Shown here piece by piece: positions 55,955 through 64,000 of a DNA stretch of 64,000 bases. The position numbers and the translations under genes were made by a program. The stretch covers positions 45-64,044 of the forward strand of contig VERF01000006.1 of NCBI GenBank assembly GCA_018882895.1. Direction: 5' to 3'. Origin of the DNA: Candidatus Kapaibacterium sp. GTDB taxonomy: Bacteria > Bacteroidota > Ignavibacteria > Kapaibacteriales > Kapaibacteriaceae. The stretch's first letter is position 1. Every line of letters starts with the position of its first letter. Below the pieces are notes generated by a model. The model saw only the letters and a list, made by a program, of their open reading frames with translations, was not told the DNA's origin and did not search any database.

Positions 55955-56572
55955 ATGGCACACGACCTCCAGATAAATGCCGAGTTCGTGAAAGGGGCTA
56001 CCTCTTCGGAGCATTTCCCCGTGACCTCGTTGTGCGAGGTTGCCATGGTCGGCCGCTCAAATGTTGGTAAATCGTCGCTCATCAATGCGATCGTGCGACA
56101 TGGTCGGATGGCTCGGGTGTCGAACACGCCGGGTAAGACCCAAGAGATAAACTTCTTTGTGACCGATGCCGGCTTCATGCTGGTCGATCTTCCGGGCTAT
56201 GGCTATGCCCGTGTGAGCAAGACGCAACGAGAACAGTTCTCGCGGCTTATCCGTGATTATGTGACGCGACGTGAGAACCTCGCGCTGACGTGTGTGCTTG
56301 TTGATGCCAGACATGATCCGCAGCCGCTTGATCTGGCAATGCTCGAAGAACTGGAGCTTGCAAAACGCGCCTACGTTGTTGTTCTGACAAAGTGCGATAA
56401 GCTCAAGCCCGGGGCCGTAGCAGCCCGACAGGAGCAGCTCCGGCAGGTGCTGTCACAATGTCGATACCTGGTGGACGTGATACCTACCTCCAGTCAGACC
56501 GCTCTGGGCCGTCATGAACTGATCGGCTGCATGAAACGAATAGTGAATGAACATGTGAAGGGATCGTCATGA
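55955..56572 (+). CDS. yihA: Ribosome biogenesis GTPase YihA/YsxC (EngB)
   Basis: [30 protein letters not shown]. Confidence 0.96.
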
Positions 56573-57072
56573 GCACCCAACCCTTGGTCGGAATCATAAT
56601 GGGTAGTGACACTGACTACCCAACGATGCGCGAAGCCGCTCAGGTCTGCGAAGAGTTCGGCATTGCAGCAGAAGTCCGCGTCGTAAGCGCTCACCGAACG
56701 CCTGCAGACATGGCCGAGTACGCATCCACCGCACACGAGCGTGGACTGAAGGTCCTGATCGCCGGAGCCGGAGGAGCTGCTCATCTGCCGGGTATGGTCG
56801 CATCCTACTCGCCCCTTCCCGTGATCGGTGTGCCGATAGCTACCAAGCAGCTCCGAGGTCTTGATTCGCTGCTCAGCATTGTCCAAATGCCGGCAGGTGT
56901 GCCCGTGGCCACGGTAGCGATCGGTGGTGGCCGCAATGCCGGCATACTTGCCATGGAGATCCTCTCAGTGGCCATGCCTGAGCTTCAGCAGAGATTGATC
57001 GAGTTCAAGGGGGCGATGGCCGAGGCCTCGCGCGCGAAGAACACCTCGCTGGGTGCTTCGGTGATCATTTGA
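56569..57072 (+). CDS. purE: N5-CAIR mutase
   Basis: [40 protein letters not shown]. Confidence 0.98.
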
Positions 57073-57089
57073 TGACGAAGCATTTACTG

Positions 57090-57120
57090 TTGAATAATCG
57101 GCCGCACGTGCCGATGTTTG
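57090..57120 (+). promoter_or_regulatory. Candidate promoter of the arg operon leader
   Basis: TTG (57090-57092) - 20 nt - GATGTTTG (one mismatch to TAnnTTTG). Confidence 0.4.
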
Positions 57121-57150
57121 CTCCCCCTCGATCAGAACAAACTTTCTGAG

Positions 57151-57237
57151 ATGAAACTGCGACGCATCCGATATGACCGACGACGACTGCCGCTGCGAGA
57201 ATTCCGGCAGGTCGCACGCGTGTGCATTCGGATCTGA
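57151..57237 (+). CDS. Putative arginine-rich leader peptide (28 aa) of the arg operon
   Basis: Translates as MKLRRIRYDRRRLPLREFRQVARVCIRI*; 10 Arg codons (6 CGA, 2 CGG, 2 CGC) including CGA-CGA-CGA; below the ORF-track size cut-off. Confidence 0.7.
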   Translation: MKLRRIRYDRRRLPLREFRQVARVCIRI

Positions 57238-57359
57238 CCCCTCTCGCAGCCAAACTATCTCGAGGTGCCGCCATCATCCGTTGAGCTACTCCGGATGACG
57301 TCGCCAATCGCCCCCTGTCAGGGCGAACATGTTTCAGAACTATCATCACTACAACGTCC

Positions 57360-57941
57360 ATGAACGATCCGCTCGTTGACGTTGGCGTGGAAGTGTTCCA
57401 TGCCAATGAGTCACACACCCTGTACGCAGAAGAGATCTGCGAGACGATATTCGTTGCCGCACAGCAACGGGGAACCGGCATTGCCCGGCGCACACCGGAA
57501 TACATCATCGGGAAGATGATGGAAGGCAAGGCCATCATTGCGCTGACGCAGGATGGACGCCTCGCCGGATTCTGCTACGTTGAGACATGGGAACACGGCA
57601 GGTATGTGGCCAACTCGGGACTGATCGTCAAGCCCGAGTTTCGGAAACAAAACCTGGCGCGTCGAATCAAGAAGGCCGCCTTCGACCTGTCGAGAGAGCG
57701 CTACCCGAGCGCGAAACTCTTCGGCATCACAACAAGCGCCGCCGTGATGAAGATCAATTCGGAACTCGGATATCGCCCCGTGCATTTCTCTGAGCTCACC
57801 AGCGACGAGGCCTTCTGGAGCGGATGCCAGTCGTGTCCGAACTACGACATACTTCAGCGAACAAATCGTGCCATGTGTCTTTGCACGGGTATGCTTGCCG
57901 ACTCCGCATCGCAGACCAATTCATCGTCGGAGGATGCATGA
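57360..57941 (+). CDS. GNAT-family acyltransferase, Bacteroidota-type N-acylglutamate synthase (ArgA function)
   Basis: RGTGIARRTPEYI..KM.EGKA, GFCYVETW.H...VANSGLIV, FGITTS.AVMKINS.LGY.PV, FW.GC.SC.NY; first gene of the arg operon. Confidence 0.8.
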   Translation: MNDPLVDVGVEVFHANESHTLYAEEICETIFVAAQQRGTGIARRTPEYIIGKMMEGKAIIALTQDGRLAGFCYVETWEHGRYVANSGLIVKPEFRKQNLARRIKKAAFDLSRERYPSAKLFGITTSAAVMKINSELGYRPVHFSELTSDEAFWSGCQSCPNYDILQRTNRAMCLCTGMLADSASQTNSSSEDA

Positions 57942-59140
57942 ACAAGGTGCTGCTTGCCTTCAGTGGCGGACTAGATACGTCATACTGTGCCCGCTATCTG
58001 GCCGTTGATCAAGCCATGGAGGTCCACTCGGTGGTCGTCGACACCGGCGGCTTCACCACCGATGAACTGGCGCACATCGCTGAACGCGCACGCGCCTGCG
58101 GTGTGGCATCACATTCGACACTCGATAGAACGCAAGTACTCTTCGACACAGTGCTGCGCCATTGCATCGCAGGGAACATTCTAAAGAATGCTAGCTATCC
58201 GCTGAGCGTCAGCGCCGAACGCGTCGTGCAGGCCATCGCCATCGCCGAACATGCACGCTCAATCGGTGCAACTCATCTTGCCCATGGCTCTACCGGAGCC
58301 GGCAACGATCAGATCCGGTTCGATACGATCTTCCGGATCATGACGCCACAGCTGCCCGTGCTGACGCCGATACGCGACAATCGACTATCTCGGCAGGACG
58401 AGATCGAGTACTTGCTCAAACACGGCGTGGAGGGTGACTGGACAAAGGCGAAGTATTCGATCAATCAGGGGATCTGGGGAACAACCATCGGTGGACGCGA
58501 AACGCTGACGTCGCATGAGCCCCTTCCCGAAGCAGCATGGCCATCGAACATTCATGCAAAGCACCCTGCCGATGCCTCGCAGGTTGTGCAACTGCATTTT
58601 GATAAGGGGCTTCCCACACGCCTCGATGGGGAGGCACTCGACCCCGTAGCGCTGCTGCGTCGGCTGAACGACATCGGCTCGCAGTGGCACATTGGCCGTG
58701 ATATGCACGTGGGTGATACGATCCTTGGCATCAAGGGGCGCGTGGCCTTTGAAGCGCCGGCAGCATTGATGACCATCAAGGCGCATCACGCTCTTGAGAA
58801 GCACACGCTTACCAAGTGGCAACTGAATCTTAAGGACCAGCTCTCGCTCTGGTATGGGCAGCTTCTGCACGAGGGACAATTCCTCGAACCCGCCATGCGA
58901 AGCATCGAAGCTTTCTTCGATCAAACGCAGCAACACGTCAACGGTGAGGTGACGCTTCGCCTGCGCGAAGGGGGCTTCTTCGTCGAGGGCATCACTTCGG
59001 CGCATGACCTTATGAGGTCGTCCTTTGCCACCTACGGCGAGGAGAACCTGGCCTGGAGTGGCGACGACGTCAAGGGCTTCGCAACCATCGGCGCGATCGC
59101 CACCTCGATCTGGTCGAGCGTCAACGGAGACCCAACATGA
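57938..59140 (+). CDS. argG: Argininosuccinate synthase
   Basis: KVLLAFSGGLDTS, AHGSTGAGNDQIRF, GIKGRVAFEAP. Confidence 0.97.
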   Translation: MNKVLLAFSGGLDTSYCARYLAVDQAMEVHSVVVDTGGFTTDELAHIAERARACGVASHSTLDRTQVLFDTVLRHCIAGNILKNASYPLSVSAERVVQAIAIAEHARSIGATHLAHGSTGAGNDQIRFDTIFRIMTPQLPVLTPIRDNRLSRQDEIEYLLKHGVEGDWTKAKYSINQGIWGTTIGGRETLTSHEPLPEAAWPSNIHAKHPADASQVVQLHFDKGLPTRLDGEALDPVALLRRLNDIGSQWHIGRDMHVGDTILGIKGRVAFEAPAALMTIKAHHALEKHTLTKWQLNLKDQLSLWYGQLLHEGQFLEPAMRSIEAFFDQTQQHVNGEVTLRLREGGFFVEGITSAHDLMRSSFATYGEENLAWSGDDVKGFATIGAIATSIWSSVNGDPT

Positions 59141-60087
59141 TCCGCGCCGCCGTCATTGGCGCCGCCGGCTACACGGGCGGCGAGCTCATACGTCTGCTGC
59201 TGCGGCATCCAAACGTCGGACAAGCAGGCCTGACGGCCGTTAGCACCTCGTCGGCCGGACGACGCATCGGAGAAGTTCATCCGGATCTGAGCGGCAGCAC
59301 TGACCTGCGCTGCACGGATCATCATGGTGAGCCTGACGTTGTCTTTCTTTGCCTCGGCCACGGTCAGAGCTCACGATGGCTTGCCGAAAACACACTTGCG
59401 GCACACGTGCGCGTTGTCGACCTCAGCACGGACCATCGTGATCTGACAGCTAATCCGGGGTGGACCTATGGTCTGCCCGAGAAGTACCGTCAGGCGATAC
59501 GTGGCTCATCGCGTGTTGCCAATCCCGGTTGCTTTGCCACAGCCATTGAACTGGCCCTTCTGCCGCTGGCCGAAACCGGTCTTTTAACCGGTGACGTTGT
59601 GGTGCACGCCATCACAGGATCGACAGGTGCGGGCGCGCAACCGTCGGAGACAACCCACTATGCGTGGCGTGAATCCAACGTCAGTACCTACAAGACGTTT
59701 GCCCACCAGCATGAGGCCGAGATCCGCCAGGTGCTGGGGGATGTGCGACTGCACTTCGTGCCGCTGCGTGGACCCTTCACACGGGGCATTCATGCCACAT
59801 CGGTCATCCCCGGGATGCACGATCTGCAACAGGCCATATCCGCCATCACCACGCGCTATGCCGAGGAGCCCTACGTGCACGTGGTATCGAACGAACCGGC
59901 AATGAAGGCCGTCGTCAACACCAACAACTGCCACATCGGCCTCACGGGTTCGAATGGTACGCTCTGCATCGTCAGCTGCATCGACAACCTCCTGAAAGGG
60001 GCTAGTGGTCAGGCCGTGCAGAATATGAATCTGATGTTCGGTTTTGATGAGACGGCCGGACTCAACCTCAAAGCATCGGTGTATTAG
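59137..60087 (+). CDS. argC: N-acyl-gamma-glutamyl-phosphate reductase
   Basis: GAAGYTGGELIRLL..HP, ANPGCFAT, DNLLKGASGQAVQNMN. Confidence 0.97.
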   Translation: MIRAAVIGAAGYTGGELIRLLLRHPNVGQAGLTAVSTSSAGRRIGEVHPDLSGSTDLRCTDHHGEPDVVFLCLGHGQSSRWLAENTLAAHVRVVDLSTDHRDLTANPGWTYGLPEKYRQAIRGSSRVANPGCFATAIELALLPLAETGLLTGDVVVHAITGSTGAGAQPSETTHYAWRESNVSTYKTFAHQHEAEIRQVLGDVRLHFVPLRGPFTRGIHATSVIPGMHDLQQAISAITTRYAEEPYVHVVSNEPAMKAVVNTNNCHIGLTGSNGTLCIVSCIDNLLKGASGQAVQNMNLMFGFDETAGLNLKASVY

Positions 60088-60099
60088 GAGCCCCCTTCC

Positions 60100-61059
60100 A
60101 TGAAGCGTTTCACCTCGGTACAGGATATCATTGGCGGACCCGGTCTTATGGCGGCGATGAAGCGAGCACTCGACTATGCGGCCGATCCGTGGATGCATGA
60201 GGGACTTGGACGTCGGCGCACGGTGGGTCTGCTCTTCATGAACCCTTCGCTGCGTACGCGTATGAGCACGCAGAAGGCTGCCTCGCTGCTGGGTGCGGAG
60301 ACGATCGTGCTGAATGCCGGCAGTGACTCGTGGACGCTCGAGACGCGCGATGGGGTGGTGATGGACGGTTCGACAACTGAGCACATCAAGGAAGCGGCCG
60401 CCGTGATGGGCGCGTACTGCGACGTGCTTGGCCTGCGCACGTTTGCCGGCCTAACGGACCGCGCTCATGATTACCAAGAAACGGTACTCGAAAAGTTTAT
60501 CACCTATGCCGGCGTGCCGGTCATCAGCCTCGAGAGTGCCACACGTCACCCCCTGCAAAGCTTTGCCGATCTCATCACCATCGAGCAGCATAAGACACGT
60601 CAGCGTCCAAAGGTGGTGCTGACCTGGGCACCCCATCCCAAGGCCCTGCCACAGGCAGTGGCCAACTCATTCGTTGAATGGATGCGTCATGCAGACGTAG
60701 AGCTGGTGGTGACGCATCCGGAAGGTTATGAGCTTGATCCGTCATTCGTCGGCGATGCCACGGTCATGTACGATCGTGATGCTGCCTTTGAAGGCGCCGA
60801 CTTCATCTACGCCAAGAACTGGTCGGCCGTTGAGCCTTATGGGGCTATCCTGTCGCAGGACAAGCACTGGACCGTTACGCCGGAAGCGATGTCGCATACC
60901 AGCAATGCCAAGTTCATGCACTGCCTACCGGTGCGACGTAACATGATCGTTGACGATGCGGTGATCGATGCGCCAACGTCCATCGTGATCCCACAAGCCG
61001 CCAACAGGGTTGTCTCTGCCCAGACGGTTCTGTCCTTTATGCTTGAAGGACTCGGCTGA
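60100..61059 (+). CDS. argF: N-acyl(succinyl/acetyl)-ornithine carbamoyltransferase (ArgF')
   Basis: FMNPSLRTR, MDG...EH..E, HPLQ, LTWAPHPKALPQAVANS, KNWS, FMHCLPVRR. Confidence 0.93.
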   Translation: MKRFTSVQDIIGGPGLMAAMKRALDYAADPWMHEGLGRRRTVGLLFMNPSLRTRMSTQKAASLLGAETIVLNAGSDSWTLETRDGVVMDGSTTEHIKEAAAVMGAYCDVLGLRTFAGLTDRAHDYQETVLEKFITYAGVPVISLESATRHPLQSFADLITIEQHKTRQRPKVVLTWAPHPKALPQAVANSFVEWMRHADVELVVTHPEGYELDPSFVGDATVMYDRDAAFEGADFIYAKNWSAVEPYGAILSQDKHWTVTPEAMSHTSNAKFMHCLPVRRNMIVDDAVIDAPTSIVIPQAANRVVSAQTVLSFMLEGLG

Positions 61060-61829
61060 TGAAAGTGATCAAGATCGGTGGGGCCGTGCTCGACGAACCG
61101 TACCTGCGCAAGCAGATGCTTGATGCGGTCCCGCGTCTGGCAGAGCCCTGCATTCTTGTTCACGGTGGGGGAGTGATCGCTACGAAGCTCGCTCGCGAGT
61201 TGAACGTTCCACAGACCATGGTCGACGGACGTCGTGTCACCGATGCGGCCACGCTGGAGATCGTGGTGATGGCCTACGCCGGCAGCGTCAACAAGTCCCT
61301 TGTGGCTGAACTCTACGCGCTGGGACGTCCCGCAATTGGCATCACCGGCGCCGATGCAGACGTTGTGCGCGCGCATCGGCGGGAGCATCCGACGCTGGAC
61401 TTCGGCTTTGTGGGTGACATTGATCACATCAACACCAAGCAGCTTCGCTCATTCCTGGATCAAGGCATGAGTGTTGTCGTAGCGCCCATTACGCACGACG
61501 GCGGCGGACAGCTGCTGAATACCAATGCCGACACCATGGCGGCAGAGATCGCCATCGCTCTTGTGAAGTCCGCCGATGCTGATGCAGAGCGCGTGTCGCT
61601 CCACTTCGTCTTTGAGCACCGAGGTGTACTGGCATCGGTTGATGATCCCGATTCGGTCTTCGAATGTATCGAGTCGGCAGACGTACCTTCACTCGTTAGC
61701 CAGGGAGTGATAACAAAGGGTATGATGCCCAAGATCTCCAACGCCGTACGAGCCGCAGAGGCCGGGGTAGAGGTTGTGATCCAGCACGTAGGTGATTGCG
61801 GCACAACGGGTGGGACGCGCATCGTATGA
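61059..61829 (+). CDS. argB: Acylglutamate kinase
   Basis: VIKIGG, VHGGG, DGRRVTD, LLNTNADT, GMMPK. Confidence 0.96.
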   Translation: MKVIKIGGAVLDEPYLRKQMLDAVPRLAEPCILVHGGGVIATKLARELNVPQTMVDGRRVTDAATLEIVVMAYAGSVNKSLVAELYALGRPAIGITGADADVVRAHRREHPTLDFGFVGDIDHINTKQLRSFLDQGMSVVVAPITHDGGGQLLNTNADTMAAEIAIALVKSADADAERVSLHFVFEHRGVLASVDDPDSVFECIESADVPSLVSQGVITKGMMPKISNAVRAAEAGVEVVIQHVGDCGTTGGTRIV

Positions 61830-62881
61830 TCGAGCTACTGCAACGACTCATTGCTACGCGGTCATTCTCCAGAGAGGAGAATGTGACGGCGGATATTCTC
61901 GAGGACCATTTACGCGGCTGTGGTCGCCCCGTTCAGCGTTTCGGCAACAACGTGCTGTCGTTGCCGGAACCGGATGGACGTCCGATATGGCTGCTGAACT
62001 CTCATCACGATACGGTGCGTCCGGGCGGTGGCTGGAGTCATGATCCGCTCGTCCCAACGATCGTTGACGGACGTCTCTACGGTCTGGGCTCCAACGATGC
62101 CGGTGGGGCGCTTGTGATGATGCTCGCTGCGTATCTGCACATGTCGGAGAAGTCCGATACTCCGGTGCAGTTTGCCTTTGCCGCTACTGCCGAGGAAGAG
62201 GTAAGTGGCGATGGCGGCATGGCGCTGCTTGCGCGCGAGGTCTTCGACAAGTATCCTCTTGCCTGCGCTCTTGTGGGCGAGCCCACACAGATGCAGATGG
62301 CGGTGGCCGAGAGGGGGCTGATGGTGCTTGACTGCACATGGCACGGCCGGACGGGACACGCAGCCCGCAAGGAGGGCATCAACGCCATCTATGCGGCGCT
62401 GGCCGACATCGAATGGTTCCGCACGTTTGAGTTTACCGATATCACCGGTGACCTCGGTGAGGTGTCGATGACCGTCACGCAGATCAATGCCGGTACGCAG
62501 CACAACGTCGTCCCCGACGTCTGCACGGCCGTTGTTGATGTGCGCGTGCCCGGCTCGCATACGCACGAGGATGTGCTGGCGGTTATCCGCGCGCACGTGA
62601 GCTGCGACTGTCAGCCCCGTTCCATGAGGTTGCGTTCCTCATCCATCGCGATGGATCATCCTCTTGTTCAGTCGGGCCTCGCGCTCGGCATGAAGGCCTA
62701 TGCCAGCCCCACAATGTCTGACCAGGCTCTGCTGCCATCGGGCGTTCCGTCGCTCAAGATCGGTCCGGGCAACAGTGCGCGCTCGCACACGCCTGACGAG
62801 TGGATCGGCATCGACGAGGTGGAGTCGGGCATTGCCACATTCATTCATCTGCTCGAAACAACCATGCGGAGTCTGCAATGA
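61826..62881 (+). CDS. argE: M20-family acylcitrulline/acylornithine deacylase
   Basis: LLNSHHDTV, LYGLGSNDAG, AEEE, VGEPT, GHAA, RSHTPDE; operon position. Confidence 0.85.
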   Translation: MIELLQRLIATRSFSREENVTADILEDHLRGCGRPVQRFGNNVLSLPEPDGRPIWLLNSHHDTVRPGGGWSHDPLVPTIVDGRLYGLGSNDAGGALVMMLAAYLHMSEKSDTPVQFAFAATAEEEVSGDGGMALLAREVFDKYPLACALVGEPTQMQMAVAERGLMVLDCTWHGRTGHAARKEGINAIYAALADIEWFRTFEFTDITGDLGEVSMTVTQINAGTQHNVVPDVCTAVVDVRVPGSHTHEDVLAVIRAHVSCDCQPRSMRLRSSSIAMDHPLVQSGLALGMKAYASPTMSDQALLPSGVPSLKIGPGNSARSHTPDEWIGIDEVESGIATFIHLLETTMRSLQ

Positions 62882-64000
62882 AGCCATGGGATAAAGGGGC
62901 TCCTATCGATGCGTTGATGGAGCAATTCACTGTTGGACGAGACCGTGACGTTGACGCGCGTCTAGCGCGCTGGGACGTTGTGGGCTCCATCGCCCATGCC
63001 GAGATGCTCGGCACGGTTGGCCTCATCTCTGATGACGAGCGACGTCAGCTGACGGCGGCGTTATCGGAGCTGCTCGAAGAGATCGACCGCAACGGAATTG
63101 TTATCGACCCGGCCTGTGAGGACATCCACTCACACGTCGAGGCCGTGCTGACGCAGAAGCTTGGTGATGTGGGCAAGAAGATCCACACCGGGCGCAGCCG
63201 CAACGACCAGGTACTTGTGGACCTCAAGCTCTTCCTGCGTCACGAGCTCCGCAGCACGCGCATGCGCGTTAAGGAACTTGCCGATCTGCTCATCACGCTT
63301 GCCGAGAAGTACAACACCGTGGAGCTGCCCGGCTACACGCACTTCCAGATCGCCATGCCCTCGAGCTTTGGTCTATGGTTTGGCGGCTATGCCGAGGCCC
63401 TCATCGAAGATCTGCGCGTGCTGGACATGGGCATTGATGCTGCAAATGCCAACCCTCTTGGCAGTGCTGCAGGCTATGGCACGTCGCTTCCGCTTGATAG
63501 GGGGCTTACCACGCGCGCGCTGAACTTCGATCGCGTACACGTCACCAGCACCTTTGCTCAAATGTCGCGCGGGCGCACCGAAAAGCTCGCAGCCATTGCG
63601 CTTGCTCAGCCCCTTTCCACTCTTGCGCGTTTCGCTGCCGATGTGGTGCAGTATGCAAGTCAGAACTATGGCTTCATCACCTTGCCCGAGGCCTTTACCA
63701 CCGGCTCGAGCATCATGCCGCACAAGCGCAACCCTGATGTCTTCGAAGTACTTCGTGCGCGGTGCAATCGCCTGCAGTCCGCGGCGCACGAGATCGCGAC
63801 CATGCTCACCAATCTTCCGTCGGGCTACCACCGCGACATGCAGTTCATCAAGGACGTCATCGTCGACGCCATCGACGAAGCCCAGCTTCTGTTGGACGTT
63901 GCCCTGCATGTTGTGCCGCACATCACGCCCGTTCAGAATCTGCTCCAAGACCCTTCCTACGATCCTATCTACAGCGTTGCCCGTGTAGAGGAACTCGTCC
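62878..64000 (+). CDS. argH: Argininosuccinate lyase, truncated at window end
   Basis: MKPWDKG...EDIHSHVE...KIHTGRSRNDQ...PGYTHFQ...TGSSIMPHKRNPDVFE, read directly from the sequence. Confidence 0.97.
   Translation, partial: MKPWDKGAPIDALMEQFTVGRDRDVDARLARWDVVGSIAHAEMLGTVGLISDDERRQLTAALSELLEEIDRNGIVIDPACEDIHSHVEAVLTQKLGDVGKKIHTGRSRNDQVLVDLKLFLRHELRSTRMRVKELADLLITLAEKYNTVELPGYTHFQIAMPSSFGLWFGGYAEALIEDLRVLDMGIDAANANPLGSAAGYGTSLPLDRGLTTRALNFDRVHVTSTFAQMSRGRTEKLAAIALAQPLSTLARFAADVVQYASQNYGFITLPEAFTTGSSIMPHKRNPDVFEVLRARCNRLQSAAHEIATMLTNLPSGYHRDMQFIKDVIVDAIDEAQLLLDVALHVVPHITPVQNLLQDPSYDPIYSVARVEELV

Follow-up and report, generated by a model that had tools for sequence, protein, structure and literature searches.

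An arginine-codon leader peptide as a candidate sensor in front of the arginine biosynthesis operon of a Candidatus Kapaibacterium genome without detectable ArgR

How are the arginine biosynthesis genes controlled in a bacterium in which no ArgR is found? Bacterial arg genes are usually controlled by ArgR, which represses them from ARG boxes. The question is raised by a stretch of 64,000 nucleotides (nt) from Candidatus Kapaibacterium sp. (contig VERF01000006.1 of assembly GCA_018882895.1; this whole stretch is referred to below as the window), in which an operon of the order GNAT-argG-argC-argF'-argB-argE-argH follows purE after an intergenic gap of 287 nt (purE ends at 57072 and GNAT starts at 57360). 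An earlier note on this DNA, made from the sequence alone, had proposed that translation of a small, Arg-rich open reading frame (ORF) in the gap remodels the leader RNA and takes the place of ArgR. This proposal has held up in the analysis described here: the ORF and its run of CGA codons are present in 30/30 distinct leaders, two covarying structures were found around them, and a sister family possesses a form with a terminator. Comparative evidence indicates that the gap probably harbours a ribosome-mediated leader-peptide sensor of charged tRNA-Arg controlling the entire operon in an ArgR-less organism.

The earlier note had seen no argR adjacent to the operon, and this observation can be extended to the whole genome (rated 100% complete), in which both ArgR Pfam domains, PF01316 and PF02863, had 0 matches. 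Controls for this search were positive in 8-9 of 14 reference genomes, including Bacteroides thetaiotaomicron. The C-terminal domain of ArgR was likewise found in 0 of 41 sampled relatives, which represent 11 families of the order. In a sample of the phylum (Kapaibacterium is classified in Bacteroidota) this domain occurred in 66 of 151 genomes; it was present in 23 of the 30 genomes from other orders of the class and in 0 of the 7 from the order itself. All these ArgR counts come from samples and apply to the genomes searched. A half-site-like string in the gap, TGAATAAT (57091-57098), is not conserved in the leader alignment.

Direct reading confirmed all coordinates that had been given for the gap, the ORF and its CGA run (Table 1). 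Ten of the 28 codons of MKLRRIRYDRRRLPLREFRQVARVCIRI specify Arg, and six of these are CGA. As the earlier note had asked, CGA was compared with genome-wide usage: in 1,103 long ORFs of the genome the shares among Arg codons are 15.5% for CGA, 36.9% for CGC and 22.5% for CGT, while CGA is invariant three times over in the leaders. The tRNA-Arg genes carry the anticodons ACG, CCG, UCU and CCU, and no tRNA-Arg gene with the anticodon UCG is present among the tRNA genes of the genome. This leaves the decoding of CGA to the inosine form of tRNA-Arg(ACG), the only one able to read it. Decoding by I:A wobble is slow. According to the account in PMC3711424, a tRNA-Arg with wobble inosine decodes CGU, CGC and CGA in most bacteria. 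By itself the leader ORF is not beyond chance: a scan of the genome outside long ORFs yielded 112 small ORFs in which three or more Arg codons follow one another. Because Arg-run small ORFs arise by chance at this level, the case rests on comparison with relatives, and it is conservation and covariation in these relatives that raise the leader above chance. No second copy of the element was found in the genome; a small ORF with a CGA run on contig C36 was considered and rejected, since it sits inside a repetitive coding region.

A GNAT homologue was present in 33 of the 41 sampled relatives, including 24/24 other genomes of the genus, and order-wide in 99 of 201 genomes. Thirty loci were fetched first, and 60 upstream regions were added later, from 60 of the 69 genomes not yet included (G008, G104, G107, G114, G119, G127, G130, G132 and G158 were left out of the added set). 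A homologous small ORF with the core RRRL(P/T)LRE lies upstream of GNAT in 21 of the 30 first loci; the nine loci without it are three from the genus (L011, L012 and L022) and six from other families. Both fetches together gave 30 distinct leader sequences, all from Kapaibacterium-like Bacteroidota, and it is in these 30 that the conserved Arg-rich short ORF and the covarying stems, for which the earlier note had suggested looking, were found.

The leader frame is open in all 30 leaders, while the other five frames are open in 21, 4, 21, 19 and 15 of 30, respectively, over a 75-nt interval around the CGA run. An in-frame start codon (ATG in 24 leaders, TTG in 4 and GTG in 2) always lies 9-12 codons 5' of the run. 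The ORF varies in length from 26 to 33 codons, and the differences in length between start and CGA run amount to whole codons, while the N-terminal residues preceding RRR vary freely.

Around this ORF the leader RNA can fold into two hairpins, P_A and HP1. P_A, in which the 5' arm contains the CGA run and the Leu-Pro codons, is the fold of the RNA ending at 57228 (-16.1 kcal/mol) and would be expected to form first on the nascent RNA. Because the 3' arm of P_A is not at the same place in every clade, P_A was scored for each leader individually. In 22 of 30 leaders the best duplex is better than those of 300 shuffles (p < 0.05), and the median z is -2.7, figures to be read with the reservation that the sequences are kin and represent few independent events, and that choosing the best duplex favours finding a partner. 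The Leu codon varies at its third base alone, which is G, U or C; in 28 of 30 leaders this base has C, A or G, respectively, as its pairing partner. HP1 starts 5 nt 3' of the last CGA and consists of P_B, P_D and P_C. The complementarity that the earlier note had described between the segment just 3' of the CGA run and the segment after the stop codon is exact, and this stem, P_B, covaries in the relatives. HP1 is the minimum free energy (MFE) fold of 57172-57256 (-28.8 kcal/mol). In the 30-sequence alignment 91.0% of cells are paired as HP1 predicts; sliding the partners by 1-3 columns lowers this to 33.7-46.1%. For covariation the score is 0.188, compared to 0.086 ± 0.012 for shuffled alignments, and 0 of 500 shuffles reach 0.188. 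The P_B pair at alignment columns 57/115 is GC in 19 and AU in 11 sequences, and the P_D pairs 70/104 and 71/103 each show four pair types. The HP1 helix was also recovered by RNAalifold. HP1 is by far the more stable of the two hairpins and takes the 3' arm of P_A as its 5' strand; P_A and HP1 share 57205-57217 and are therefore mutually exclusive. They are the sole structures conserved across all leaders. The region combines the traits of a ribosome-mediated attenuator, i.e. a short leader ORF, a cluster of cognate codons and mutually exclusive structures, with translation and dependence on the ribosome presumed.

The residues that follow RRR allow a distinction between constraint on the peptide and constraint on the RNA. 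The codon after Leu is CCG, ACG, GTG or CTG (Pro, Thr, Val or Leu), and its third base, G, which is the first base of P_B, is invariant. In one leader (L163) an Arg codon is replaced by TGG (Trp), a C-to-U change that preserves a G-U pair, and in another (L153) Leu is replaced by Met. This argues that after RRR the constraint is on RNA and codons and not on the peptide; because these radical residue changes spare the pairing, no sensing peptide is indicated. It could be supposed instead that the nascent peptide around RRRLPLRE, together with free arginine, arrests the ribosome from the exit tunnel, as in systems of the AAP (arginine attenuator peptide), SpeFL and TnaC type, and the motif D/A-RRR-L-P-L-R-E does look conserved as a peptide in most leaders. 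However, exchanges among Pro, Thr, Val and Leu, of Arg to Trp and of Leu to Met are radical for a peptide while neutral for RNA pairing, the residues before RRR vary freely, the peptide of a sister family is unrelated with Arg runs alone being shared, and stalling at high arginine would need the opposite wiring; nascent-peptide arrest is therefore considered very improbable. The combination of CGA run, spacer and hairpin was also considered as a frameshift site and rejected, since by the usual rules the run would not count as slippery, and no conserved start exists in the +1 frame, which is open in 21/30 leaders.

A different leader is found in a genus of a sister family, at all 6 of 6 loci (L028, L174, L177, L181, L182 and L183), and no Rfam family matches it. 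Its peptide is unrelated (e.g. MASVLRRRSLRRRPCQQWHGTAAVLSQALENTTYHW) and contains 5-6 CGA codons, which occur in runs. A 1:2 hairpin pairs the CGA runs with downstream sequence, and an antiterminator segment, GTGGCAC(G/A)GG, is complementary over 7-10 nt to the 5' half and the loop of a conserved terminator. Two subtypes differ, in matching fashion, in how this pairing is extended. A stem of at least 11 bp forms the terminator, and its U tract lies about 30 nt 5' of the GNAT start; at these loci argG lies 3' of GNAT as well. Only the CGA runs and the overall logic are common to both designs. This independent sister-family design is the strongest single argument for CGA codons as the sensor. 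Taking all of this together, we think it probable that the leader in the window is an Arg-codon leader-peptide sensor.

These data also bear on the possibility that the region is a structured cis-regulatory RNA, riboswitch-like or protein-binding, which senses arginine or a related signal directly and in which the ORF is incidental. Long invariant blocks (CGACGACGA and GCTGCG) and two covarying alternative helices would fit such an RNA, and the +1 frame too is open in most leaders. Yet it is the leader frame that is open in every one, with a start at a nearly constant distance; the largest invariant block left unpaired in the HP1 state is exactly the three Arg codons; no conserved internal loops interrupt HP1, which is a plain hairpin; and what the sister family has in common with the window is the CGA runs and not the sequence, in a leader of classical attenuator anatomy. 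Searches against Rfam, moreover, gave no family match: for 56000-58500, at E up to 10, no relevant match was obtained (the lone listed one, E 0.66, was a short, spurious match to a snoRNA model), and nothing matched four related loci at a limit of E 1. Direct sensing by a structured RNA is accordingly regarded as improbable.

How could such a sensor act on the operon? Scarcity of arginine would cause the ribosome to stall on the CGA codons, which only tRNA-Arg(ICG) reads, through its weak I:A wobble. With the 5' arm of P_A occupied by the ribosome, the freed 3' arm could pair forward into HP1; HP1 would sequester its C-rich 3' strand and the operon would be ON. At plentiful arginine the ribosome would melt HP1 and reach the stop codon, which lies inside HP1, so that neither the C-rich strand nor the C-rich, G-poor spacer would be covered. 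On this long naked RNA Rho could load and terminate transcription before or within the first gene, turning the operon OFF. The element thus probably turns the operon on when arginine is short.

A Rho-dependent output is proposed because there is no U tract, the spacer is conserved as C-rich and G-poor, and Rho is present. The earlier note had seen no U tract after the last hairpin and had doubted intrinsic termination. This is borne out, as no terminator-like site was found in 57073-57359 and no U tract follows any hairpin in the genus of the window. Between leader stop and GNAT start the C content is 0.32-0.44 and the C/G ratio 1.4-2.2 in 29/29 leaders measured; the C/G ratio in the window falls within the top 2.6% of the 493 upstream regions of the genome (median 1.04), and in the terminator-bearing leaders of the sister family it is 1.20-1.45. 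The genome encodes Rho (PF07497, E 8.6e-30, in a 632-aa open frame). Given the sensor, Rho-dependent termination is put forward tentatively, as a possibility falling somewhat short of an even chance; the rest of the probability for the output is divided between an effect on the stability or processing of the mRNA and a weak terminator that depends on a factor.

The same sensor could thus have another output, with the choice between P_A and HP1 acting on the stability or processing of the mRNA, for example through an RNase that cuts one of the two conformers, or on a weak factor-dependent terminator instead of Rho. That P_A and HP1 are the only structures kept in all leaders, with no conserved downstream partner, would suit such an output, and there is a precedent in Salmonella orf34-speF, where, in the account of PMC6386406, pausing at two Arg codons selects an RNase G-resistant structure. 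The hairpins of the spacer may be relevant here as well. Two further hairpins had been described in the earlier note, and both are present in the window, but beyond it they occur in the closest relatives only, and the family as a whole does not keep them. Which hairpins lie downstream depends on the clade; in every clade there is one that precedes a run rich in pyrimidines, for example GUUCUUC. However, an output of this kind leaves the conserved C-rich, G-poor spacer without an obvious role, an RNase site is not recognisable from sequence and the hairpins lack U tracts. We consider it unlikely, while still a serious candidate.

Several observations weigh against a ribosome-mediated sensor with Rho-dependent output as set out above. 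Since the sequences are kin, the covariation perhaps represents 2-4 independent events, and the invariance of CGA could partly reflect pairing in P_A. No conserved partner in the spacer was found for the 5' segments of the leader (median z -0.7 and -0.2), nor, within the genus, for the 3' strand of HP1 (z -1.9 to +1.7), and because of this lack of conserved partners the classical 2:3/3:4 logic is not demonstrated in the genus. Folding with a ribosome footprint, as suggested in the earlier note, did not bear out remodelling of the downstream region: in constrained MFE folds of 14 leaders with the ribosome at the CGA run or at the stop codon, the downstream hairpins and the GNAT start showed no consistent change. 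A ribosome stalled at the third CGA would open part of P_B and expose some C-rich RNA, contrary to the logic proposed. There is no intrinsic terminator, the Rho step is argued from base composition, which is no proof of a rut site, and the conserved features are explained about equally well by an output through RNA stability. Finally, by covariance model the element is missing from 5 of 28 genomes of the genus, so the arg operon can do without it.

Long-range pairing between the 5' part of the leader and the spacer was considered as a general feature and rejected, being significant only in the window and a few other leaders. The alternative partner CATCCG (57165-57170) proposed in the earlier note is real in the window, where the pairing extends to a 12-bp duplex with a 1-nt bulge (57159-57170 with 57292-57304, z -3.5) in which leader codons 3-7 pair with the 3' arm of the first of the two hairpins, but it is clade-specific, a shorter form occurring in the closest relative only. 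Longer leaders are found in other genera of the family. In four of these (L159, L160, L164 and L165) a third, GCUGC-like segment lies 20-100 nt before the GNAT start and is complementary to the 3' strand of HP1, with duplexes of -18 to -27 kcal/mol, and in L160 and L163 a GUCGUCG segment is complementary to the CGA run. The leaders of L159, L160, L164 and L165 may represent a fuller platform for alternative pairing than those of the genus of the window.

A covariance model was built from the 30 leaders and searched across the genomes of the family. It gave one strong match per genome, always beside GNAT, and the element is a single-copy one adjoining GNAT in 32 genomes of the family. By genus, matches were obtained in 23 of 28 genomes for the genus of the window and in 1/4, 2/2, 2/2, 1/1 and 2/2 genomes for five others. 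A genus of 10 genomes gave nothing convincing with the model (the lone match, E 7e-4, lies on a contig other than that of GNAT), and another genus, of 1 genome, gave no match. In L011, L012 and L022, of the same genus as the window, the purE stop directly precedes GNAT without a leader, and it seems that the arg genes have here become part of the purE operon. Another two genomes of the genus likewise gave no match to the model. A scan with an invariant 20-mer over one genome per species returned at least 119 matches, and 10 true leaders are among the matches listed; seven of these ten belong to Candidatus Kapaibacterium sp. (3), Ignavibacteria bacterium (3) and an organism named only 'bacterium' (1). 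The remaining matches among those listed were discarded as chance, in high-GC genomes.

The fixed position of the element beside the arg operon in these 32 genomes is relevant to the null explanation, i.e. that the region has no regulatory function and that the block is kept for another reason, such as an operator for an unknown repressor or the antisense ORF. A 157-aa antisense ORF (57065-57538, minus strand) does span the leader and the GNAT start, and small ORFs with Arg runs are common by chance. Against this, the compensatory changes argue for pairing of plus-strand RNA. Pfam yields no match for the antisense ORF itself, and over the core only 15-21 of 30 relatives keep the antisense frames free of stop codons, which makes this ORF probably spurious. 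Absence of a regulatory function is the least credible of the explanations considered.

The features of the locus are listed in Table 1. The argG ATG at 57938 overlaps the GNAT stop codon as ATGA, and homology of argG to its relatives begins near residue 39 of the longer frame; argH extends beyond the end of the window. The 'near-consensus promoter' that had been placed upstream of the ORF in the earlier note could not be upheld: the sigma-70-like match TTGATG-18-AATAAT (57069-57098, 9/12) is at shuffle level, with 3 such matches found and 3.1 expected. The conserved upstream block is instead GATGTTTGC, which resembles the Bacteroidota -7 element, TAnnTTTG. Sister-family leaders have GTAT(A/T)TTCGCGCC at the same relative place. 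Transcription would start downstream of this promoter-like block. Elsewhere in the genome, outside the window, contigs C91, C102, C104, C109 and C127 contain many small frames reading SSRRRPGS or SPRRRPGP, which points to a short GC-rich repeat dispersed through intergenic regions.

Table 1 Features of the purE-arg region of the window (positions are those of the window; P_A, HP1 and their helices are predicted RNA structures)
Feature	Position	Strand	Basis or remark
purE	56569-57072		Pfam AIRC
Conserved promoter-like block GATGTTTGC	57113-57121	+	TTTGC invariant in 21-leader alignment except one CTGC
Leader ORF, 28 codons, MKLRRIRYDRRRLPLREFRQVARVCIRI	57151-57237	+	UGA stop at 57235-57237
Hairpin P_A	57173-57227	+	5' arm 57173-57192 (CGA run, Leu-Pro codons); 3' arm 57205-57227
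CGA-CGA-CGA, proposed ribosome stall site	57178-57186	+	Invariant in 30/30 leaders
Hairpin HP1	57192-57250	+	P_B + P_D + P_C; leader stop codon in 3' strand
P_B (9-bp stem)	57192-57200 with 57242-57250		GCTGCGAGA exact complement of TCTCGCAGC
P_D	57206-57213 with 57231-57239		
P_C (apical helix)	57214-57217 with 57222-57225		
C-rich, G-poor spacer, candidate Rho loading region	57238-57359	+	C 0.37, G 0.20, C/G 1.88
Clade-specific hairpins in spacer	57274-57280/57292-57298 and 57308-57313/57321-57326	+	
GNAT acetyltransferase gene, first gene of the arg operon	57360-57941	+	Pfam Acetyltransf_7/1/10
argG (argininosuccinate synthase)	57938-59140	+	Pfam Arginosuc_synth, Arginosuc_syn_C
argC, OTCase-like transcarbamylase, argB, M20 deacylase (argE-like), argH	59137-63999	+	Pfam match per frame

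Other short frames with Arg codons occur upstream of GNAT in the order. In other genera of the sister family (L024, L171, L173 and L175) a very short frame lies in the last ~30 nt before the GNAT start and ends in 2-3 Arg codons and a stop, a few bases before the GNAT GTG or ATG; examples are ...IIEQYRR-stop, with CGA AGG or AGA AGG, and ...TRRR-stop. These may constitute a third, translational Arg-codon design, which is only suggestive since RR pairs are common by chance. In family f10 (L202, L204, L207 and L209) a conserved ORF of ~43 codons lies ~150-250 nt upstream of GNAT, starting with MKKNDYFYG... in 3 of the 4 loci and ending in I-R-R-stop (CGA CGC TGA or AGG CGC TAA). In genomes of this family (e.g. 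G033, G052, G069 and G100) the GNAT match is part of open frames 588-630 aa long, a size that suggests fusion of GNAT and ArgG in one protein. Family f2 (L029, L187 and L188) has an ORF of 35-36 codons ending in RRxRA-stop. A conserved ORF ending in ...RRRSSRRACLRRFHLRT lies ~100-230 nt upstream of GNAT in family f9 (L184 and L185); its Arg codons are mixed (AGG, CGA and CGC) and no obvious terminator follows it. Matches of the type MQRLCRRRLS upstream of GNAT in family f8 were rejected as chance, since they lie inside the carA coding sequence in another frame. Further families may have uORF designs of the Arg-Arg-stop kind.

Leader peptides that attenuate biosynthetic operons are classically represented by trpL, hisL, leuL, thrL, ilvL and pheL. 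Their mechanism of transcription attenuation is summarised in PMC1183508. The element in the window resembles them in having a short ORF in front of a biosynthetic operon, a run of codons for the end product, mutually exclusive hairpins next to those codons, and a leader stop codon at the next hairpin strand. It differs from them in the amino acid, arginine, in the exclusive use of CGA in the run, in its Bacteroidota host and in the lack of a U-tract terminator in the genus, the sister family having one. Leader-peptide control of Rho-dependent termination is known from mgtL-mgtA, with its Pro codons, and from tnaC. Further leaders of this type are speFL/orf34 (PMC6386406) and toiL-topAI (PMC12121999). 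By analogy, the window would share with mgtL, tnaC, orf34 and toiL the absence of an intrinsic terminator, the selection of conformers by the position of the ribosome, a C-rich region after the ORF and an encoded Rho. It is unlike them in that Rho dependence is here read from base composition, the presumed signal is charging of tRNA-Arg and the operon is that of arginine biosynthesis.

Two leaders with Arg codons come closest in their sensing step. Salmonella orf34, upstream of the polyamine gene speF, is described in PMC6386406 as acting through ribosome pausing at two Arg codons and RNase G, and Staphylococcus aureus rbfL, upstream of the biofilm gene rbf, as presented in PMC13009471, contains two Arg codons, AGA and AGG. 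In both, as would be the case here, pausing at slowly read Arg codons under scarcity alters the fate of the downstream gene. Whereas these leaders have two Arg codons and work through RNase G or occlusion of the ribosome-binding site, the window has three invariant CGA codons in front of the arg operon itself. The ArgR regulon has the same target pathway, with ArgR not found in this genome or in the 41 sampled relatives. Fungal AAP senses free arginine via a conserved peptide, stalls the ribosome at its own stop codon and represses. The leader of the window is, like AAP, an upstream ORF tied to arginine and arginine biosynthesis; unlike in AAP, the peptide outside RRR is not conserved and the constraint lies on codons and RNA pairing. 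No description of a leader-peptide attenuator of an arg operon was found in the literature searched, and the older comparative-genomics literature on attenuation, Russian papers included, may hold an earlier prediction. The data support as new an arginine-specific, CGA-based, ribosome-mediated attenuation in an ArgR-less order of Bacteroidota, in the present case without an intrinsic terminator.

If this is true, it would be the first leader-peptide attenuation for arginine biosynthesis. Textbooks assign leader attenuation to his, trp, leu, thr, ilv and phe and leave arginine to ArgR; arginine would then be added to the list, and a substitute for ArgR would be revealed in a lineage where ArgR is not found. 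The use of CGA, which has the weakest wobble of the main tRNA-Arg, would be a clean natural example of sensor codon choice. It has been concluded from modelling that sensitive attenuation requires a particular synonymous codon (as outlined in PMC1183508), and the use of CGA only matches this theoretical claim. The element could also serve as a compact arginine-responsive part for the genetics of Bacteroidota. We regard it as an evenly balanced proposition that the order has lost ArgR and replaced it by translation of Arg-codon leaders, with CGA sensors on at least two platforms, one with a terminator and one without, the latter probably using Rho. This would be a natural case of one sensor exchanged between output modules, and the paired designs, terminator versus C-rich spacer, would make directly testable the long-standing question of how evolution recombines attenuator sensors with their output platforms.

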